Positions 9,753-17,822 of a DNA stretch of 42,209 nt are shown here, in pieces. Source of the DNA: Gemmatimonadota bacterium (GTDB lineage Bacteria; Gemmatimonadota; Gemmatimonadetes; Palauibacterales; KS3-K002); the NCBI GenBank assembly GCA_039586795.1, contig JBDHJS010000059.1:15505-57713 (forward strand), given 5' to 3'. Numbering within the stretch: position 1 is the stretch's first letter; each line of letters starts with the position of its first letter. The position numbers were made by a program, and so were the translations under genes. Under the pieces are notes generated by a model. That model searched no databases. It saw only the letters and a list, made by a program, of their open reading frames with translations, and was not told where the DNA came from.

Positions 9753-11549
9753 ATGAACGGTGCGCTAGGCGTACGCTGGGACGATCTACCTCTGCTTCGT
9801 GATCGCGCCGTCTCGCTGCTCGAGACGGGGCCGGCTCGCGGGCCGGCATTGGCGGAGGAGATGTTCGGGATGCGGTATGGGCCGACGCGGCTGGCGACCT
9901 CGTTAGTGCGAGAGGTTCTCAAGCCGGACCCACGGTTTCTGTCGAATCGGGGTCGCTGGCGGCTCACTTTGGGCGAGTCGGCCGTGACCGAGCTGCCGCT
10001 CCGGGACATGGAGTTCGTAGTCGTCGACGTCGAGTCGACGGGCGGCTCGCCGAAACGGGGCGATCGGCTGACCGAAGTGGCGGCGGTTCGAATGGTAGGC
10101 GGCGAGGTCGTCGACTGTTGGGAATCGCTGGTTAATCCGCGGCGACCGATCCCGCCATCGGTGTCACGGCTGACGCAGATCACCGACGAGATGGTCGCCG
10201 GGGCGCCGACGTTTGGCGAACTGGCCGACGAACTGCGGGGCGCGTTGGAAGGTGCGGTTTTCGTCGCCCACAACGTCAGCTTCGACTGGCGGTTGTTGCA
10301 GGCGGAGTACGAGCGCTGCAAAGGCGGGCGGCTTGACGGTGAAGTTCTCTGCACGCTGCGCTTGGCTCGGAAGCTCCATCCGGAGTTACGGCGCCGCAGT
10401 TTAGGGGCGCTGGCGGACTACTATTCCATCGGGTTTGAGGACTGGCATCGAGCGGGGCCGGATGCCAGGGCGACTGCGGAGTTGCTGAGTCGGTTCTTGA
10501 AGCGACTGGAAGATGAAGAGGTCACCGATTGGGGGCGCTTGCAGTTGTATTTGAAGGGGCAGTGGCCCGTTGAAGACGAGGGCGCGGGCGCGGGCGCGGA
10601 CGGGGCGACGAAGAAGACGAAGGGAAAGACCAAAGGTCGCCGAAAGGGCAATGGCAGGAAGAAGAAGCGGAACGGAAAGATGGGAGATGTGAACACGCGC
10701 CAACTGGGTGATTTCCGATTGCATTCTCTGAACGCGGGGATGCAGCGGCTGGACGGTGGCGCAATGTTCGGGGTTGTGCCCAAGCCGCTCTGGGAGAAGA
10801 AGATCGCGCCCGACGACCGCAACCGAATACCCCTTGCCATGCGACCGCTACTCGTCGAGGCCGGCTACGAGCTGGTGCTCATCGATACCGGCGCCGGCAA
10901 CAAGGAAGACGACAAGTTCAAGGACATCTACGGACTCGAGAACGAAGGTGAGCCTTCGGCCCTCGAGGACTCGATCCGTGCTGCCGGCTTCAACCCCGGC
11001 GATGTGACACTCGTCATAAACACGCATCTCCACTTCGATCACGCGGGCGGCAACACGGTCCAACTCCCCGACGGTGAAATCGTCCCGGCGTTCCCCGGTG
11101 CTCCCCACGTCGTTCAGGCGGCCGAGTGGGAGTTCGCCCACCTGCAAAACGAGCGGGTGAAGGCCAGCTACCTGCTTCACAACTTCGACCCGGTGGAAGC
11201 AGCAGGGCTGTTCGAGACAGTGGAGGGTCCCAAGGAGATTGTACCCGGCGTTACAGTTCTCCCGACGCCGGGGCACACGCCGGGACACCAGTCTGTTCTG
11301 ATAGAGTCGGCGGGCGAAAAGGCCCTCTATCTGGCCGATTTGGTGCCCACCGCGGCCCACCTTCCCCTGGCGTGGATCATGGGCTACGACGTGGAACCGC
11401 TGATCACACTTGAGATTAAGCGGGGCGTGCTGGGAAGACTGGAGCAGGAACGGAGTTTGCTGGTATTTGAGCACGACCCCAACACATCCTGGGGCTACCT
11501 AGCGCCTCAGGAAAAGAAGCCGACTCTGGTCGCCGAGCGGCCAGACTGA
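9753..11549 (+). CDS. DEDDh 3'-5' exonuclease (DnaQ-like) in frame with an MBL-fold hydrolase (YtnP-like)
   Basis: VVDVESTG, VAHNVSFD, HRAGPDA; then LDGGAMFGVVPKPLW, THLHFDHAGG, PGHTPGH, FEHD. No stop between them; internal ATG at 10680. Confidence 0.85.
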   Translation: MNGALGVRWDDLPLLRDRAVSLLETGPARGPALAEEMFGMRYGPTRLATSLVREVLKPDPRFLSNRGRWRLTLGESAVTELPLRDMEFVVVDVESTGGSPKRGDRLTEVAAVRMVGGEVVDCWESLVNPRRPIPPSVSRLTQITDEMVAGAPTFGELADELRGALEGAVFVAHNVSFDWRLLQAEYERCKGGRLDGEVLCTLRLARKLHPELRRRSLGALADYYSIGFEDWHRAGPDARATAELLSRFLKRLEDEEVTDWGRLQLYLKGQWPVEDEGAGAGADGATKKTKGKTKGRRKGNGRKKKRNGKMGDVNTRQLGDFRLHSLNAGMQRLDGGAMFGVVPKPLWEKKIAPDDRNRIPLAMRPLLVEAGYELVLIDTGAGNKEDDKFKDIYGLENEGEPSALEDSIRAAGFNPGDVTLVINTHLHFDHAGGNTVQLPDGEIVPAFPGAPHVVQAAEWEFAHLQNERVKASYLLHNFDPVEAAGLFETVEGPKEIVPGVTVLPTPGHTPGHQSVLIESAGEKALYLADLVPTAAHLPLAWIMGYDVEPLITLEIKRGVLGRLEQERSLLVFEHDPNTSWGYLAPQEKKPTLVAERPD

Positions 11550-11567
11550 GACATAGGTGTGACTGTT

Positions 11568-12782
11568 ATGTCCGACGCAAAGACCACCCCGGTTATCGTT
11601 AGCAGCGCCAGGACGCCGATTGGCCGGTTTCTCGGCGGTCTGGCCAAGTTCAAGGCCCCTCAGCTCGGCTCCCTCGTCATCAAGGAGGCGGTGGAGCGAG
11701 CCGGTATCAAACCGGACCAGGTAGAGGACGTGATCATGGGCAACGTCCTGCAGGGCGGTGTCGGCCAGGCGCCGGCCCGGCAGGCGTCGATTGGCGCGGG
11801 CATCCCGGCCAGCGTGCCCGCGGTGACGATCAACAAGGTGTGCGGGTCCGGTCTCAAGTCCGTTATGCTCGCCGCGCAGGCGATCAAGGCGGGCGACAAC
11901 GAGGTTATCGTCGCCGGCGGCCAGGAATCGATGTCCAACGCTCCCTACTACCTGTTTGGCTATCGAGACGGCGTGAAGTTCGGCACCAAGAATATGGTGG
12001 ACGGATTGATCCACGACGGCCTCTGGTGCGGCTTCTACGATTGCCATATGGGTGGCCACGCCGAGTACACGGCCATGAAGGCTGATGTGTCGCGCGCCGA
12101 CCAGGACGAGTTTGCCTACCAGAGCCACATGAAAGCGGTTGCGGCGATGGAGGCCGGCAAATTCGACAACGAGATCGTCAAGGTCGAGGTGAAGGGTCGC
12201 AAGGGGAAAGTCGACATCGTCGACAAGGACGAGAACCCGCGAGCTGACACCACCGTAGAGTCGCTGGCTAAGCTGAAGCCAGCATTCGGTGACAGCGCAC
12301 CCGAAGAGGTCAAGGAGTACAGCGTGACCGCCGGCAACGCGTCCGCGCTAAACGACGGTGCCGCGGCTGTGCTCGTCACCTCCCAAGCATTCGCGGAAGC
12401 GAATGGGCTCGAAATCATGGCGCGCATCAGGAACTACTCGGTTGGCGCGACGGAGCCCAACGACCTGTTCTTTGCCCCCATCGACGCGGTGGAGAAGTTG
12501 ATGGCGAAGGACGGGACCAAGATCAACGACTACGACCTGATCGAGGCTAACGAGGCGTTTGCCGTGCAAGCCATCGCCGACGGTCGCGGACTGGGTTGGG
12601 ACTTTGACCGCGTCAACGTGCATGGCGGCGCCGTAGCTCTCGGGCACCCCATCGGCGCGTCCGGCGCGCGGATTCTTGTGACGCTGCTTGGCGCCATGCA
12701 GGATCGCAACGCCAACCTCGGGTTGGCCACGCTGTGCTTGGGCGGCGGCAACGCGGTAGCCGTCAGCGTAGAGCGCGTATAA
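11568..12782 (+). CDS. Acetyl-CoA C-acetyltransferase (thiolase)
   Basis: NKVCGSG, NEAFA, GHPIGASG, CLGGG. Confidence 0.96.
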   Translation: MSDAKTTPVIVSSARTPIGRFLGGLAKFKAPQLGSLVIKEAVERAGIKPDQVEDVIMGNVLQGGVGQAPARQASIGAGIPASVPAVTINKVCGSGLKSVMLAAQAIKAGDNEVIVAGGQESMSNAPYYLFGYRDGVKFGTKNMVDGLIHDGLWCGFYDCHMGGHAEYTAMKADVSRADQDEFAYQSHMKAVAAMEAGKFDNEIVKVEVKGRKGKVDIVDKDENPRADTTVESLAKLKPAFGDSAPEEVKEYSVTAGNASALNDGAAAVLVTSQAFAEANGLEIMARIRNYSVGATEPNDLFFAPIDAVEKLMAKDGTKINDYDLIEANEAFAVQAIADGRGLGWDFDRVNVHGGAVALGHPIGASGARILVTLLGAMQDRNANLGLATLCLGGGNAVAVSVERV

Positions 12783-12815
12783 GGGTAACTAAGAGAGAAG
12801 ACGAGAGACGACGCC

Positions 12816-12962
12816 GTGGAATCGAACTCCGCTATACGGGACACGAACACCAGTCTGACGCGACCGACTGGCGCGGGGTCGTCTCTGTCTGTACCGGTAG
12901 TCCTACTGGCTTTGGTTCTGATTACGACCGATTCGCCGTATTCAGCCCTCGCGCCCCATTAG
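12816..12962 (+). CDS. Putative 48-aa leader peptide rich in branched-chain amino acids (not in the ORF track)
   Basis: GTG 12816 to TAG 12962 encodes MESNSAIRDTNTSLTRPTGAGSSLSVPVVLLALVLITTDSPYSALAPH; 10 of 13 codons at 12885-12923 are L/V/I. Confidence 0.5.
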   Translation: MESNSAIRDTNTSLTRPTGAGSSLSVPVVLLALVLITTDSPYSALAPH

Positions 12963-12980
12963 GCCGAGGGCTTTTTGTTT
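12944..12980 (+). terminator. Intrinsic terminator between thiolase and hbd
   Basis: agccctcg(c)gcc-ccatta-ggc-cgagggct followed by ttttgttt. Confidence 0.8.
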
Positions 12981-13025
12981 GACTCGTGCGCGCCCCATAC
13001 CATCCAGCAAGAAGGCGAGAACGAG

Positions 13026-13880
13026 ATGAGTGATGCAATGAAAGTCGCAGTTATCGGCAGCGGAACGATGGGCAACGGCATTGCCCACGTCTTCGCGCAG
13101 AGCGGGTTCGACGTCGCGTTGATCGACGTCGATCAGAGTTTCCTGGAAAAAGCGATCGCCACGATTGACAAGAACCTCGGCCGTCTGGTCAAGAAAGAGA
13201 AGATCGACGAGGCGACCAAGGACGCGACCCTGGGCCGCATCACGACGTCAACCGACCTTGCTGATGCCAAGGGCGCGACCGTCGTCGTGGAGGCGATCAC
13301 CGAGGACGAGGCCCTCAAGGCGGAGATCTTCCAGAAGCTCGACAAGGTCGTCGGCGACGACACGATCCTCGCCAGCAACACCAGCTCGATACCCATCACG
13401 CGGCTGGCCGCTCACACCAGTCGGCCCGAGAAGTTCATCGGCATGCACTTTATGAATCCCGTGCCGGTGATGAAGCTGGTGGAGGTGATCCGCGGGCTCG
13501 CAACTTCTGACGAGACCACGGAAACGGTCATGAAGCTCTCGGCCGACCTCGGTAAGACACCGGTCATCGCCAACGATTCGCCCGGCTTCATCAGCAACCG
13601 GGTGCTGATGCCGATGATCAACGAGGCGATCTTCGCGTTCCACGAGGGTGTCGCGGAGGCCGAGGCGATTGACGAAATTATGAAGCTCGGCATGAACCAC
13701 CCCATCGGGCCGCTCGCCCTGGCCGATTTGATCGGTCTGGACGTCTGCCTGTTCATCCTCAACGTCCTCCACCAGGATCTGGGCGAGGACAAGTATCGGC
13801 CGTGTCCGCTGTTGAGGAAGTATGTGGACGCGGGCTGGCTGGGAAGGAAGTCGGGGCGGGGATTCTACAGTTACGAGTAA
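13026..13880 (+). CDS. hbd: 3-hydroxybutyryl-CoA dehydrogenase
   Basis: GSGTMGNGIA, ASNTSS, GMHFMNP, PGFISNR, GPLALADLIGLD, LGRKSGRGFY. Confidence 0.93.
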   Translation: MSDAMKVAVIGSGTMGNGIAHVFAQSGFDVALIDVDQSFLEKAIATIDKNLGRLVKKEKIDEATKDATLGRITTSTDLADAKGATVVVEAITEDEALKAEIFQKLDKVVGDDTILASNTSSIPITRLAAHTSRPEKFIGMHFMNPVPVMKLVEVIRGLATSDETTETVMKLSADLGKTPVIANDSPGFISNRVLMPMINEAIFAFHEGVAEAEAIDEIMKLGMNHPIGPLALADLIGLDVCLFILNVLHQDLGEDKYRPCPLLRKYVDAGWLGRKSGRGFYSYE

Positions 13881-13950
13881 GAGGTAAAAGGAGTAAGGGG
13901 TAAGGGGGCAGGAGTACCCCACACTCCTCACCCCGTACCCCTTACCACCT
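13875..13950. repeat. Heptamer-based inverted repeat (GTAAGGG / CCCTTAC-like)
   Basis: gagtaag aggtaaa aggagtaaggggtaagggg followed by the complementary run ctcctcaccccgtaccccttacc. Confidence 0.75.
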
Positions 13951-13964
13951 ATGCGAGTGAATAG

Positions 13965-15134
13965 ATGAAACGCGACTACACTCTAAACGAAGACCAGGAG
14001 CAGATCCGCCAGCTCGCCCGCGACTTTGCCGAAAACGAATTGCGGTCGCGGACGGTGGAGTGGGATCGTAACTCTCAGTTCCACGGTGAAGTGATGCCGT
14101 TGATGGCGGAGCTCGGGTTCTTCGGCATGCTGCTGCCCGAGGAGTACGACGGACTCGGGTTGGGCATGCTCGATTACCTGGTCGCGTTGGAGCAGATCGC
14201 GTGGGGCGATGCGTCGGTGGCCATCACAGTTTCGGTGCACAACTCGCTGCCGACCCAGATGATCCTGAAGTATGGCAGCGAAGAGCAGAAGAAGATGTGG
14301 TTGCCACCCATGGCGCGGGGTGAGGCGTTGGGAGCGTTCGCGCTGTCGGAGGCCGGATCCGGCAGCGATGCTGCCAGCCTCAAGGCTCGGGCCGAGCCAG
14401 ACGGCGACGGCTGGCTGCTCAACGGTGAAAAACTCTGGGTGACCAACGGCGGCGAAGCGAAGATATTGCTCGTCATGCTGCGCACCGACACCGCTCGCGA
14501 GCGCCGCGGGCCTCGCGGAATCGGAGCCTTCGTTGTGCCCACGGACACCCCGGGCTACATAGTGGGCAAGAAGGAAGACAAGACCGGCTTGCGTGGGTCG
14601 GAGACGGTGTCTGTCAGCTTCGACAACTGTCGCGTGGGCCCGGAATCGCTGCTCGGCGAGGCGGATAAGGGCTTCATCTACGCGCTGTCCAGCTTGGAAG
14701 GCGGGCGGTTAGGCGTCGGCGCTCAGGCGCTGGGGATAGCACAGGCCGCGTTCGATCACACGGTCAGCTACGCCGGCGTCCGGAAGCAGTTTGGGCGCCC
14801 GATCAAGGACTTCCAAGGACTGGGATTCAAGATCGCCGACATGAGTACGCGCATCGAGGCGTCACGGGGCTTGCTCTACAGGGCCGCCCGGGCTTGGGAC
14901 GCCGGCCGTTCCGATATGCGCCTCTCCAGCATGACGAAATTGTACGCCAGCGAGACGGCGGTCTGGGTTACGTCTCAGGCGATCAACATCTTCGGTGGTT
15001 ACGGCTTCATGAAGGAGTATCCGGTGGAGAAGCTGTTTCGGGATGCGAAGGTCACAGAGATCTATGAGGGCACCAGTGAGATCCAACGGTTGGTGATCAC
15101 CAAAACCCTGTTTCAGGAGCAAGTGAAGGACTAA
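13965..15134 (+). CDS. Acyl-CoA dehydrogenase (short/branched-chain type)
   Basis: FALSEAGSGSD, NGEKLWVTNG, RKQFG, GGYGF, IYEGTSEIQR. Confidence 0.95.
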   Translation: MKRDYTLNEDQEQIRQLARDFAENELRSRTVEWDRNSQFHGEVMPLMAELGFFGMLLPEEYDGLGLGMLDYLVALEQIAWGDASVAITVSVHNSLPTQMILKYGSEEQKKMWLPPMARGEALGAFALSEAGSGSDAASLKARAEPDGDGWLLNGEKLWVTNGGEAKILLVMLRTDTARERRGPRGIGAFVVPTDTPGYIVGKKEDKTGLRGSETVSVSFDNCRVGPESLLGEADKGFIYALSSLEGGRLGVGAQALGIAQAAFDHTVSYAGVRKQFGRPIKDFQGLGFKIADMSTRIEASRGLLYRAARAWDAGRSDMRLSSMTKLYASETAVWVTSQAINIFGGYGFMKEYPVEKLFRDAKVTEIYEGTSEIQRLVITKTLFQEQVKD

Positions 15135-15171
15135 AACGCGGACCTGATAAATAGAAAGACGAGGTGTCGAG

Positions 15172-16227
15172 ATGGAAGTCTTTAAAGGCATGGGTAAATG
15201 GGGCCACGAGCAGGTTCTGTTCACCCGCGAGGAGTCGATAGGCTACTACGGCATCATCGCGATCCACGACACGACTCTTGGGCCTGCGCTCGGCGGTACA
15301 CGCCTCTGGAATTACGCCTCCGAGGACGAGGCGGTCATCGATGTTCTGCGCCTGTCGATGGGGATGACCTACAAGGCGGCGGTCGCCGGCCTCAACCTGG
15401 GCGGCGGCAAGTCGGTGATCATGGGAGACCCCGATCAGCCGCGCCGCGAGATGATCTTCCGAGCGCATGGTCGAGCCGTCGAGACGTTGAAGGGTCGCTA
15501 CATCACAGCGGAAGACGTGGGTACGTCTGTCGAAGATATGGACTACGTCCACATGGAGACGGAGCATGTCGTCGGCATCGCCGGCCGTTCCGGCGATCCG
15601 TCACCCGTCACCGCCTACGGCACCTATCGCGGGATGAAGGCCTGTGCCTTGGAGAAGTACGGCGATGATTCCCTCAAGGGCAGGACGGTAGCCGTACAGG
15701 GCGTCGGCCACGTCGGATATTACCTGTGCGAAAACCTCGCCGCCGAGGGCGCCAGCCTTATCGTCACCGACATCAGCGACGACAAGGTCGCCCGCTGCGT
15801 CGAGGACTTCGGCGCCGAAGCGGTAAAGGCGGACGAGATCTACGCCGTCGATGCGGACATCTTCGCACCCTGCGCGCTGGGCGCCATCGTCAACGAAAAG
15901 ACGCTGCCTCAGCTCAAGGTCAAGATTATCGCCGGCGCGGCGAACAACCAGCTGGCCAAGCACGAAAACGCCAAAGCCGTTCAGGAAGCCGATATTCTTT
16001 ACGCGCCCGACTACGTCATCAACGCGGGCGGCCTGATCAACGTCTACTCAGAGCTGGCCGACTGGACAACTGATCGCTCGAAGCGCAAAGCCGGCGAAAT
16101 CTATCAAACGCTGATCGAGGTGTTCGAGTTGGCACGTGAGGAGAAGCTGACGACGGCTGACGCCGCGGATCGCATCGCTGAGCGGCGGATCGAGACGGTC
16201 GGGCGACTGCATCGTTCGTGCGGCTGA
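15172..16227 (+). CDS. Leucine dehydrogenase (Leu/Phe/Val dehydrogenase family)
   Basis: GPALGGTR, MTYK, GGGKSVI, AEDVGT, GAANNQL, PDYVINAGG. Confidence 0.93.
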   Translation: MEVFKGMGKWGHEQVLFTREESIGYYGIIAIHDTTLGPALGGTRLWNYASEDEAVIDVLRLSMGMTYKAAVAGLNLGGGKSVIMGDPDQPRREMIFRAHGRAVETLKGRYITAEDVGTSVEDMDYVHMETEHVVGIAGRSGDPSPVTAYGTYRGMKACALEKYGDDSLKGRTVAVQGVGHVGYYLCENLAAEGASLIVTDISDDKVARCVEDFGAEAVKADEIYAVDADIFAPCALGAIVNEKTLPQLKVKIIAGAANNQLAKHENAKAVQEADILYAPDYVINAGGLINVYSELADWTTDRSKRKAGEIYQTLIEVFELAREEKLTTADAADRIAERRIETVGRLHRSCG

Positions 16228-16299
16228 GTCTTTCAAAGGGGGACAAGTAGACGAGTCAGGATCGTCCACACGTCTACATCTAAGTAAGGTGCTAGGACC

Positions 16300-17580
16300 G
16301 TGAAGAACCTGGAACAAGTAGATCACGACGTCTTTCAAGCGATCATCGACGAGACCCATCGGCAGGGCGAAGGGCTGGAGCTCATCGCCAGCGAGAATTT
16401 CGTTTCGCCCGCCGTTCTGGAGGCCATGGGCTCCGTCTTCACGAACAAGTATGCCGAGGGCTATCCTGGAAAGCGGTACTACGGCGGCTGCGAATACGCC
16501 GACGTGGCGGAGGATCTGGCCCGAAGTCGCGCCTGCGAGCTGTTCGGCGCCGACCACGCCAACGTGCAACCCCACGCCGGCGCCCAGGCCAACATGGCCG
16601 TCTACTTCTCGCTCCTCGAGCCTGGGGACGCCATCCTTGGCATGAACCTGTCGCACGGCGGCCATCTCACCCACGGCTCACCGGTCAACTTCAGCGGCCA
16701 GCTCTACAACGTCGTCGCCTACGGTGTCCGCGAAGATACGGGCTGCATCGACCTCGATCAGGTCCGCGAACTGGCGAAGCAACACCGGCCGAAGCTCATC
16801 GTCGCTGGCGCTAGCGCGTACCCGCGCGTCATCGACTTCGAGAGCTTCGCCACCATCGCCAAGGAGGTCGATGCGCGCTTGATGGTGGATATGGCTCACA
16901 TCGCAGGACTCGTCGCCGCCGGGCTCCACCCATCGCCCGTACCCTTCTCGGATGCGGTCACGACGACCACGCACAAGACGCTGCGCGGACCTCGTGGTGG
17001 GCTCATCCTCTGCACGGAGGAGCTGTCCAAGCCCATCGACAAGGCTGTCTTCCCCGGCATGCAGGGAGGTCCGCTGGTCCATGTCATCGCCGCAAAAGCC
17101 GTCGCCCTCAAAGAGGCGATGAGCGATAGCTTCCGTGAGTACTCCCAGCAGGTGATCGATAACGCGGCCGCGCTGGGCGACGAGCTGATGGAGCGCGGCT
17201 ACCAGCTGGTGTCGGGCGGCACCGATAATCACTTGCTCCTCGTCGACCTTCGTAACACCGACCTCACCGGCAAGGACGCCGAGGAGGCGTTAGGCCGCGC
17301 CAACATCACCGTCAATAAGAACACCGTCCCCTTCGAGACTCGCTCGCCGTTCGTGACGTCCGGTATCAGGATCGGTACACCCGCCCTCACCACCCGGGGC
17401 ATGGGCGTCGCGGAGATGCGTCAGATCGGCACCTGGATCGACGAGATCCTCCGGGCCCATACCGACGAATCGGTCGCCGAGCGCGTCTGCAAAGAGGTCC
17501 TCGCCATGTGTGAGGAGTTCCCGCTGTACGAGAAGTGGGTGGCCGGGACCTTCACACGGCCTGCTGGTATGGGCAGGTAA
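16300..17580 (+). CDS. glyA: Serine hydroxymethyltransferase
   Basis: [41 protein letters not shown]. Confidence 0.98.
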
Positions 17581-17589
17581 GCTGCCTAG

Positions 17590-17677
17590 ATTCTGGGATT
17601 CGGGGCTTACGAGAGTCGGGGGTTGGCAATGTTCAACCCCCGATCTTCGTAACCCCAGAACCCCCAAATCCCTGAAT
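17590..17677. repeat. Octamer-based imperfect inverted repeat after glyA, with a partial copy at 6507-6539 (minus strand)
   Basis: attctgggattcggggcttacgagagtcggggg ... ccccgatcttcgtaaccccagaacccccaaatccctgaat; 17 nt identical to the reverse complement of 6523-6539. Confidence 0.75.
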
Positions 17678-17822
17678 CAGCGTGCCGGCCTTGACTCACG
17701 TCGATCTCGACCAGAGCTTGTAGGGGTGCCCACGGAGGGCGCGGATCATTGGGGGATCGCTCATATGCCAAGAGCCACCACACTTCTCGGGACGTCAGGA
17801 CGCTGAGGCGGGGCGGGGTGCG

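Follow-up and report, generated by a model that had tools for sequence, protein, structure and literature searches.

A bioY remnant that ends inside an intrinsic terminator: a candidate ribosome-controlled attenuator between thiolase and hbd in Palauibacterales

An intrinsic terminator between two genes that may be transcribed together raises the question of how the downstream genes are reached, and a short ORF that stops inside the terminator hairpin suggests that translation may be part of the answer. We addressed this question in a 42,209-nt stretch of DNA from a Gemmatimonadota bacterium (the window; its genome is G000), in which the genes and elements described from 11559 to 17580 lie on the + strand. 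The thiolase gene (acetyl-CoA C-acyltransferase, 11559..12782, TIGR01930 over cut-off) is located 5' of the terminator, and a gap of 243 nt separates it from hbd (3-hydroxybutyryl-CoA dehydrogenase, 13026..13880, NF004474 over cut-off), which starts at 13026 and is the first gene past the terminator. Further downstream are an acyl-CoA dehydrogenase gene (13965..15134), a gene for a leucine dehydrogenase-like enzyme (15172..16227; best solved match 6acf, leucine dehydrogenase, E 1e-130), and glyA (serine hydroxymethyltransferase, 16300..17580, NF000586 over cut-off), which, judging from the spacing, is probably the last gene of the read-through unit. A previous reading of this DNA, made without database searches (the sequence-only reading), had assigned hbd, acyl-CoA dehydrogenase, and leucine dehydrogenase to branched-chain amino-acid catabolism under a reversed attenuator. 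All three enzymes were recovered by profile or structure matches, but the acyl-CoA dehydrogenase was of the short-chain/butyryl type by its best solved matches, nearer to short-chain than to isovaleryl enzymes; thus, the operon may serve wider acyl-CoA catabolism. Rfam gave no match in the window at gathering score, and no known riboswitch or T-box was seen there. No second copy of the thiolase-hbd spacer was present in G000, and a repeat or mobile element was rejected on this ground. In four of six RNA runs, which provided short contigs only, one RNA contig covered 12634-12886 without differences.

Two further observations concern the surroundings. Directly 5' of the thiolase gene, a 598-aa ORF (9753-11549) combines DnaQ-type exonuclease and YtnP-type metallo-hydrolase domains. 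In addition, the spacers at 13881-13964, 16228-16299, and 17581-17822 consist of short purine-rich repeats and, after them, the complementary pyrimidine-rich sequences, which together form loose long hairpins, and many relatives have such spacers as well.

Descent of the spacer ORF from bioY

The gap holds an unannotated ORF of 48 codons (12816..12962, GTG...TAG), as the earlier reading had reported. That reading had taken the ORF for the leader of an attenuator; our comparisons show it to be no purpose-built leader but an in-frame remnant of bioY, in which N- and C-terminal parts are joined and which we predict to act as a leader ORF. We surveyed 31 genomes of the family, 28 of which have a thiolase ortholog, by taking the first SD-led ORF of at least 25 codons 3' of the thiolase stop, with frame and terminator disregarded. 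The stop of this ORF was in all 28 genomes a TAG that lies in the loop of one shared hairpin. Sixteen of the loci encode full-length BioY (191-193 aa, PF02632) with a conserved R-A-L-E-L-F-type tail, and the other 12, including the window, have 39-58 codons that join the BioY N-terminus to the C-terminus (minigenes). Pattern scans added eight non-redundant full-length loci and one minigene (L089), which brought the set to 37 loci with 13 minigenes and 24 full-length genes; the added loci were selected by their terminator and were left out of the count of terminator conservation. The rows dropped were one locus with an N gap (L105), three without thiolase in range (L098, L103, and L084), 31 near-duplicates, and five unrelated pattern matches.

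The profile of the minigenes matched that of BioY (97%, E 5e-11). Homology to BioY was clear at both ends in L036, L038, L044, L058, and L089, and it was found at the 3' end in L032 and L050 (0-1 of 200 shuffles as good). The window carries the most diverged copy: its peptide alone gave no profile match to BioY, its 5' part was no more similar to BioY than shuffles were, and its 3' part was weakly significant against the full-length L034 (5 of 200 shuffles as good). The minigene of the window aligned strongly with L032, and via L032 none of 200 and none of 500 shuffles was as good; in addition, its slot, start context, and terminal TAG are the same as those of its full-length BioY relatives. 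Taken together, these comparisons support well the descent of the 48-codon ORF from bioY. The full-length members of this slot are BioY transporters, and the minigene is homologous to both of their ends; however, about three quarters of the protein is missing, and the minigene cannot be a transporter. The Pfam BioY model (PF02632) was over cut-off in both full-length members tested and in none of the four minigenes tested, and peptide identity to the window's copy ranged from 19% to 55% among minigenes. A protein search with the minigene alignment returned four matches: two were copies of loci already in the set, and the other two were additional peptides of the class-B type, with no new class.

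No BioY was found elsewhere in any of the 12 minigene genomes. Loss of bioY through a gain of biotin synthesis was considered and rejected, because bioB was over cut-off in only 1 of the 31 family genomes. We also observed that 11 of the 12 minigene genomes gave no match to either bioY or bioB. G017, the sole family genome with both bioB and ilvC over cut-off, also has a minigene, a case that counts against the leading explanation below; gene gain or bin contamination could account for the two genes. At a contig edge in L084 (G009), where the start lies off the contig, a further minigene class with no Leu/Val/Ile helix is suggested by the ten codons that precede the terminator.

Because the minigene is a bioY remnant, its Leu/Val/Ile-rich stretch (codons -25 to -13, L24-I36, 12885..12923) corresponds to the last membrane helix of BioY, and the cluster was inherited, not composed for a leader. 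Ten of its 13 codons specify Leu, Val, or Ile, including the six that had been called uncommon (GTA, GTA, CTA, TTG, GTT, and ATT). All of these are present, but at the codon frequencies of G000 (GTA 9%, CTA 5%, TTG 14%, GTT 13%, and ATT 13%) TTG is only moderately uncommon, and six uncommon codons out of 10 has a P of ~0.02 at a background of 0.25. Base shuffles of the spacer yielded an ORF of at least 40 codons in 36% of cases when the Leu/Val/Ile window was disregarded, and in 0 of 5000 when such a window was included.

Terminator overlap and repeated in-frame trimming

The intrinsic terminator (12944..12980) consists of a stem at 12944-12972 and a U-run to 12980, with the TAG of the minigene (12960-12962) in its loop, just as had been described from sequence; the stem begins ~18 nt before the minigene stop. 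The core stem was paired in 36-37 of the 37 loci per column, with one compensatory change (L034), and the terminator sequence is nearly invariant. A U-run with at least seven T in 8 nt was found in all 13 minigenes versus 15 of the 24 full-length loci, with three full-length copies decayed. The earlier reading had called for an alignment of the spacers in search of a conserved Leu/Val/Ile-rich short ORF ending in a covarying terminator: the ORF, its frame, and the stop-in-loop terminator were kept in 28 of 28 loci, but the Leu/Val/Ile helix itself is absent from one group of minigenes (class C).

The sister family has the same gene order, thl-bioY-(Rce1-like)-hbd-acd. Of 82 loci there with a BioY match, 13 were examined; the hairpin and U-run at the bioY stop were absent from all 13, and bioY ended in ordinary codons. 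Thus, the terminator was gained in the family of the window. Mapped onto the thl-hbd-acd tree, the minigenes require six changes of state, five of which are forced by well-supported branches, and a single minigene clade was rejected (p-AU 8.5e-8, on a tree that left out L102, L104, and six outgroups). The deletion junctions also differ between minigene lineages. In each of the 13 minigenes, the length difference from full-length relatives is divisible by 3, and this also holds for secondary deletions of 15 and 54 nt. Six in-frame events would arise by chance with a probability of 0.001 if no microhomology is assumed, 0.014 with at least 4 nt, and 0.085 with at least 6 nt; this frame statistic is weakened by the in-frame microhomologies at several junctions. 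By contrast, in G013 thl was lost by an out-of-frame internal deletion, and in the lineage of the window the Rce1-like gene disappeared without a remnant while the bioY minigene was kept. In class C (three genomes), from which the Leu/Val/Ile helix was deleted, four of the six codons at -17 to -12 are still Leu, Val, or Ile. In class B (four minigenes), the N-part differs by 25% and the anti-RBS (see below) and Leu/Val/Ile segments by 3-4%; third positions in these two segments differ by 6-8%, versus 16% in thl. We concluded that selection on the frame plus the terminator is well supported by these comparisons. As a separate observation, at the G013 locus (L124) the thiolase is an out-of-frame N+C remnant 5' of bioY, hbd is absent, and the full-length bioY retains the terminator with TGA in place of TAG.

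We also determined where terminators lie relative to stop codons in G000, using a simple gene caller (3749 genes) and strict terminators near gene ends. Fifty-six of 61 terminators start at least 13 nt after the stop, three start at 7-12 nt, and two overlap the stop, with ~3 false ones expected. Such an exclusion is typical where ribosomes keep terminators close to a stop from acting, and it is an indirect sign of coupled transcription and translation in the host. Only the terminator of the minigene, among the 43 that precede a same-strand gene, has an SD-led short ORF that stops inside the hairpin. Runaway transcription, as a trivial cause of the overlap, was unsupported, given the stop-to-stem exclusion and the phyla classed in this way in PMC13323073, among which Gemmatimonadota is not listed. 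A rho gene is present in G000, and a second Rho-like gene (C91:103086-104189) falls below the family cut-off.

In Escherichia coli, terminators near a stop codon are almost fully repressed by translation and are restored by uncoupling (PMC4824070), and a stall 5' of the pyrL terminator increases termination (PMC5021804). In a footprint model of seven minigenes, the probability of the terminator was ~1 unless the A-site reached codon -9/-8; since the modelled block occurs only there, a lagging ribosome would mean termination. A terminator with the stop in its loop, overlapped by the ORF and with a 5' arm that a ribosome could cover, is common to all 28 loci and agrees with the model.

Candidate RNA pairings and the signal read by the ribosome

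Two alternative pairings had been proposed for the leader, and both exist in the window, but they fared differently. The first, helix P1, pairs the ribosome-binding region of the minigene (5' strand, 12804..12812) with an anti-RBS (3' strand, 12878..12886) that is homologous to the G-P-F-L codons of BioY. In the window, P1 comprises 9 bp, and 0 of 30 shuffles were as good. None of 30 shuffles equalled P1 in 11 of the 37 loci, namely 8 of the 13 minigenes and 3 of the 24 full-length loci, among which kin are not independent. The helix reaches 16 bp and 12 bp, spanning ~490 nt, in the full-length L042 and L034; roughly two thirds of the loci, including the minigenes L050 and L089, have a weak P1 or none. 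An alignment of ten minigenes contains three P1 pairs in which both strands have changed, and two of these compensatory changes relative to the relatives are in the window; the covariation was matched by 1 of 500 shuffles. Long-range anti-RBS pairing of this kind is described in PMC12697547 as repressing translation in Bacillus subtilis and as normally depleted. As P1 forms only once the first ribosome could have loaded, we infer that it would limit later rounds of translation.

The second pairing connects a candidate antiterminator strand (12870..12878), a genus-level feature, with the 5' arm of the terminator (12947-12955) over 9 bp (-17.7 kcal/mol; 1 of 40 shuffles as good). It was found with 9 bp in the window and 8 bp in L032 and was absent at that position from the other 35 of 37 loci, and in folding the terminator wins over it at equilibrium. 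A family-wide antiterminator was rejected on this count of 2 in 37 loci. Class B, L032, and L044 show a candidate pause hairpin (codons -15 to -12), which was unsupported against synonymous resampling (p<0.1 in 1 of 24 full-length loci, 3 of 13 minigenes, and 5 of 13 sister-family loci); such a hairpin could be part of the cause of the conservation in class B. The Leu/Val/Ile codon zone is enriched for U at fourfold sites (0.24 vs 0.09). It was also observed that 14 of the 24 full-length bioY genes contain an out-of-frame TAG at codons -13/-12.

The zone from codon -26 to -13, which lies directly 5' of the predicted decision point, is 58% Leu, Val, and Ile, and it raises the question of whether these amino acids or translation in general would be sensed. 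CTT, ATT, and GTA (also GCT) are enriched in the zone in the family of the window; CTT, ATT, and GTA are not enriched there in the sister family. In full-length genes, the fraction of A/T-ending codons in the zone was 0.35 vs 0.18 for Leu/Val/Ile and 0.41 vs 0.20 for other amino acids, and the difference between 0.35 and 0.41 had a p of 0.29 (the loci are not independent). The corresponding fractions in the zone of the minigenes were 0.39 for Leu/Val/Ile and 0.28 for other amino acids, again with loci that are not independent, and L034 has 0 of 10 uncommon codons in the zone. The uncommon codons of the zone thus give no clear sign of a preference for branched-chain amino acids. Furthermore, a lag anywhere in the ORF would also lead to termination, which counts against such a specificity. 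On the side of physiology, ilvC was found in 1 of the 31 family genomes and leuC was over cut-off in none, in line with the Leu/Ile/Val auxotrophy reported for Palauibacterales in PMC10469786; the same source also lists auxotrophy for four other amino acids. The third-position conservation in class B and the leucine dehydrogenase-like gene downstream likewise speak for Leu, Ile, and Val, and the deletion of the helix in class C speaks against them. Specificity of the element for Leu, Ile, and Val is thus a tentative suggestion.

We therefore consider a pyrBI-type attenuator derived from bioY, in which amino-acid supply would regulate read-through, to be the leading explanation, held with modest confidence. 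A ribosome abreast of RNA polymerase would cover the 5' arm of the terminator and allow read-through into hbd-acd-ldh-glyA; a lagging ribosome would leave the arm free, and the terminator would form. Under a shortage of charged tRNA, the lag would be likeliest on the slow codons of the Leu/Val/Ile-rich stretch, and P1 may close the ribosome-binding site after passage of the first ribosome. The input would be amino-acid supply, weighted towards Leu/Ile/Val. Where relatives have kept bioY whole, the role of leader would fall to the transporter gene. The reversed attenuator logic of the sequence-only reading is accordingly plausible in its core, given termination in the folding model unless the A-site is at codon -9/-8 and the coupling-type exclusion in G000; its branched-chain specificity received less support, as the codon bias appears to be general. 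Possible, but less probable than not in our estimate, is the fuller version, in which an inverted attenuator has a functional transporter gene as its leader, with the last helix of the transporter as control codons that keep branched-chain catabolism off under scarcity in an auxotroph, and in which six lineages independently dropped the transporter and kept the leader.

Alternative explanations and known attenuators

Control of the terminator by ribosomes, in one form or another, appears likely when the leading explanation is taken jointly with two others, namely a fixed step-down device and a switch at initiation. In the first of these, partial suppression of the terminator by translation of bioY or its remnant would set a constant thl:hbd ratio with no regulated input (polarity), and in-frame remnants would persist since frameshifts would silence hbd-glyA. 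This explanation, which we regard as unlikely but the strongest of the alternatives, accounts equally well for the retention of frame and terminator; it also fits a codon bias that appears not to be amino-acid-specific and the conservation of neither an antiterminator nor a pause hairpin. However, any such device would still react to ribosome speed (PMC4824070), and tuning of the race between ribosome and polymerase is suggested by the nucleotide-level conservation of the Leu/Val/Ile segment after loss of BioY and by the doubling of A/T-ending codons in the terminator-bearing family only.

In the second, the input would act at initiation: P1, opened by a protein, a small RNA, the ribosome terminating on thl, or a ligand such as biotin, would gate translation of the ORF, and the codons would be incidental. 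P1 covaries and covers the ribosome-binding site, it is older than the deletions and survives in class C without the Leu/Val/Ile helix, and repression by anti-RBS pairing, normally depleted, has been described for B. subtilis (PMC12697547). We nevertheless judge such a switch improbable: the helix is weak or missing in the majority of loci noted above, minigenes L050 and L089 among them, it can form only once the anti-RBS has been transcribed, and neither an Rfam match in the window nor a conserved ligand-binding motif was seen.

More doubtful still is retention of the remnant because of what it encodes, be it a small membrane peptide or a 3'-end small RNA that the terminator would close. Charged residues make up 7% of the helix in the minigenes, down from 13%, four short homologs are annotated as proteins in databases, and the terminator sequence is close to invariant; but the peptides are as little as 19% identical to that of the window (19-55%), class C has no helix, the N-part drifts neutrally, and an RNA product would need neither start codon nor frame. 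Least probable is a plain terminator with an internal hbd promoter, as the sequence-only reading had offered in the alternative, in which case the ORF would be a decaying bioY pseudogene: TTGTTT-N17-TACCAT does exist at 12975-13003, and a neutral 48-codon ORF would stay stop-free 32-59% of the time at 20-40% substitution, but the site scored 7/12, below the threshold of the promoter scan, which did not report it, it was not kept in L032, the next gene in most relatives begins ~25 nt past the stem with no room for a promoter, and six independent in-frame origins with conserved segments are unexpected of a pseudogene.

The leading explanation, a bioY-derived attenuator under ribosome control, most resembles E. 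coli pyrBI, in which the intrinsic terminator lies within a short ORF (pyrL), no antiterminator is needed, and a coupled ribosome blocks the hairpin (PMC4824070, PMC5021804). The two differ in that pyrBI senses UTP by RNA-polymerase pausing in the 5' leader of a biosynthetic operon, whereas the minigene element is intercistronic, precedes catabolic genes, and derives from a transporter; its variable step would be ribosome speed. With the ilv/leu/trp/his leaders the element shares a short ORF whose clustered, partly uncommon codons for related amino acids lie 5' of a terminator. In the trp leader, a long-range helix that sequesters the ribosome-binding site shuts off leader translation, which P1 resembles. 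The short ORF was in frame in 13 of 13 minigenes and, as in ilv/leu, its cognate codons are clustered, with class C lacking the helix. In those leaders, however, stalling turns genes on via a conserved antiterminator, and the stop lies 5' of the terminator of biosynthetic genes; in the minigene element, the stop lies in the terminator loop, the genes are catabolic, no family-wide antiterminator exists (2 of 37 loci), and lagging would turn the genes off. Induction of amino-acid breakdown genes by ribosomes at times of plenty is also a property of tnaC and speFL, which rely on ligand-dependent arrest by a conserved nascent peptide and on a block of Rho; the peptide of the minigene element is poorly conserved and its terminator is intrinsic. 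Our literature search, whose coverage left out most subscription journals, returned nothing relevant on bioY attenuation, attenuation of branched-chain catabolism, or gene-derived leaders.

The origins of leader peptides are usually invisible. Here, the ancestor (bioY of the sister family, with no terminator), the intermediate (bioY with terminator), and six independent end states (minigenes) are all present in sequenced genomes, and if the reading of the transporter gene as a leader is true, this element of ~200 nt documents, in natural replicates, how a full-length gene gave rise to a leader peptide. If, in addition, the input is Leu/Ile/Val, the element would sense codons and switch on a catabolic operon at substrate plenty, an attenuator logic that was not found in the literature searched. 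The locus also suggests that short 'pseudogenes' may persist for a role in cis, and that ordinary genes with their stop in a terminator can be hidden attenuators, a pattern that can be screened genome-wide.

Apart from this locus, the G000 survey brought up other hairpins upstream of genes. On the minus strands of C4 and C31, similar terminator-like hairpins lie ~160-170 nt upstream of two genes, which we take to be cold-shock-protein-like. On the minus strands of C73 and C102, terminators lie 23-29 nt upstream of two presumably methionine-synthase-like genes, and these are candidate riboswitch leaders.
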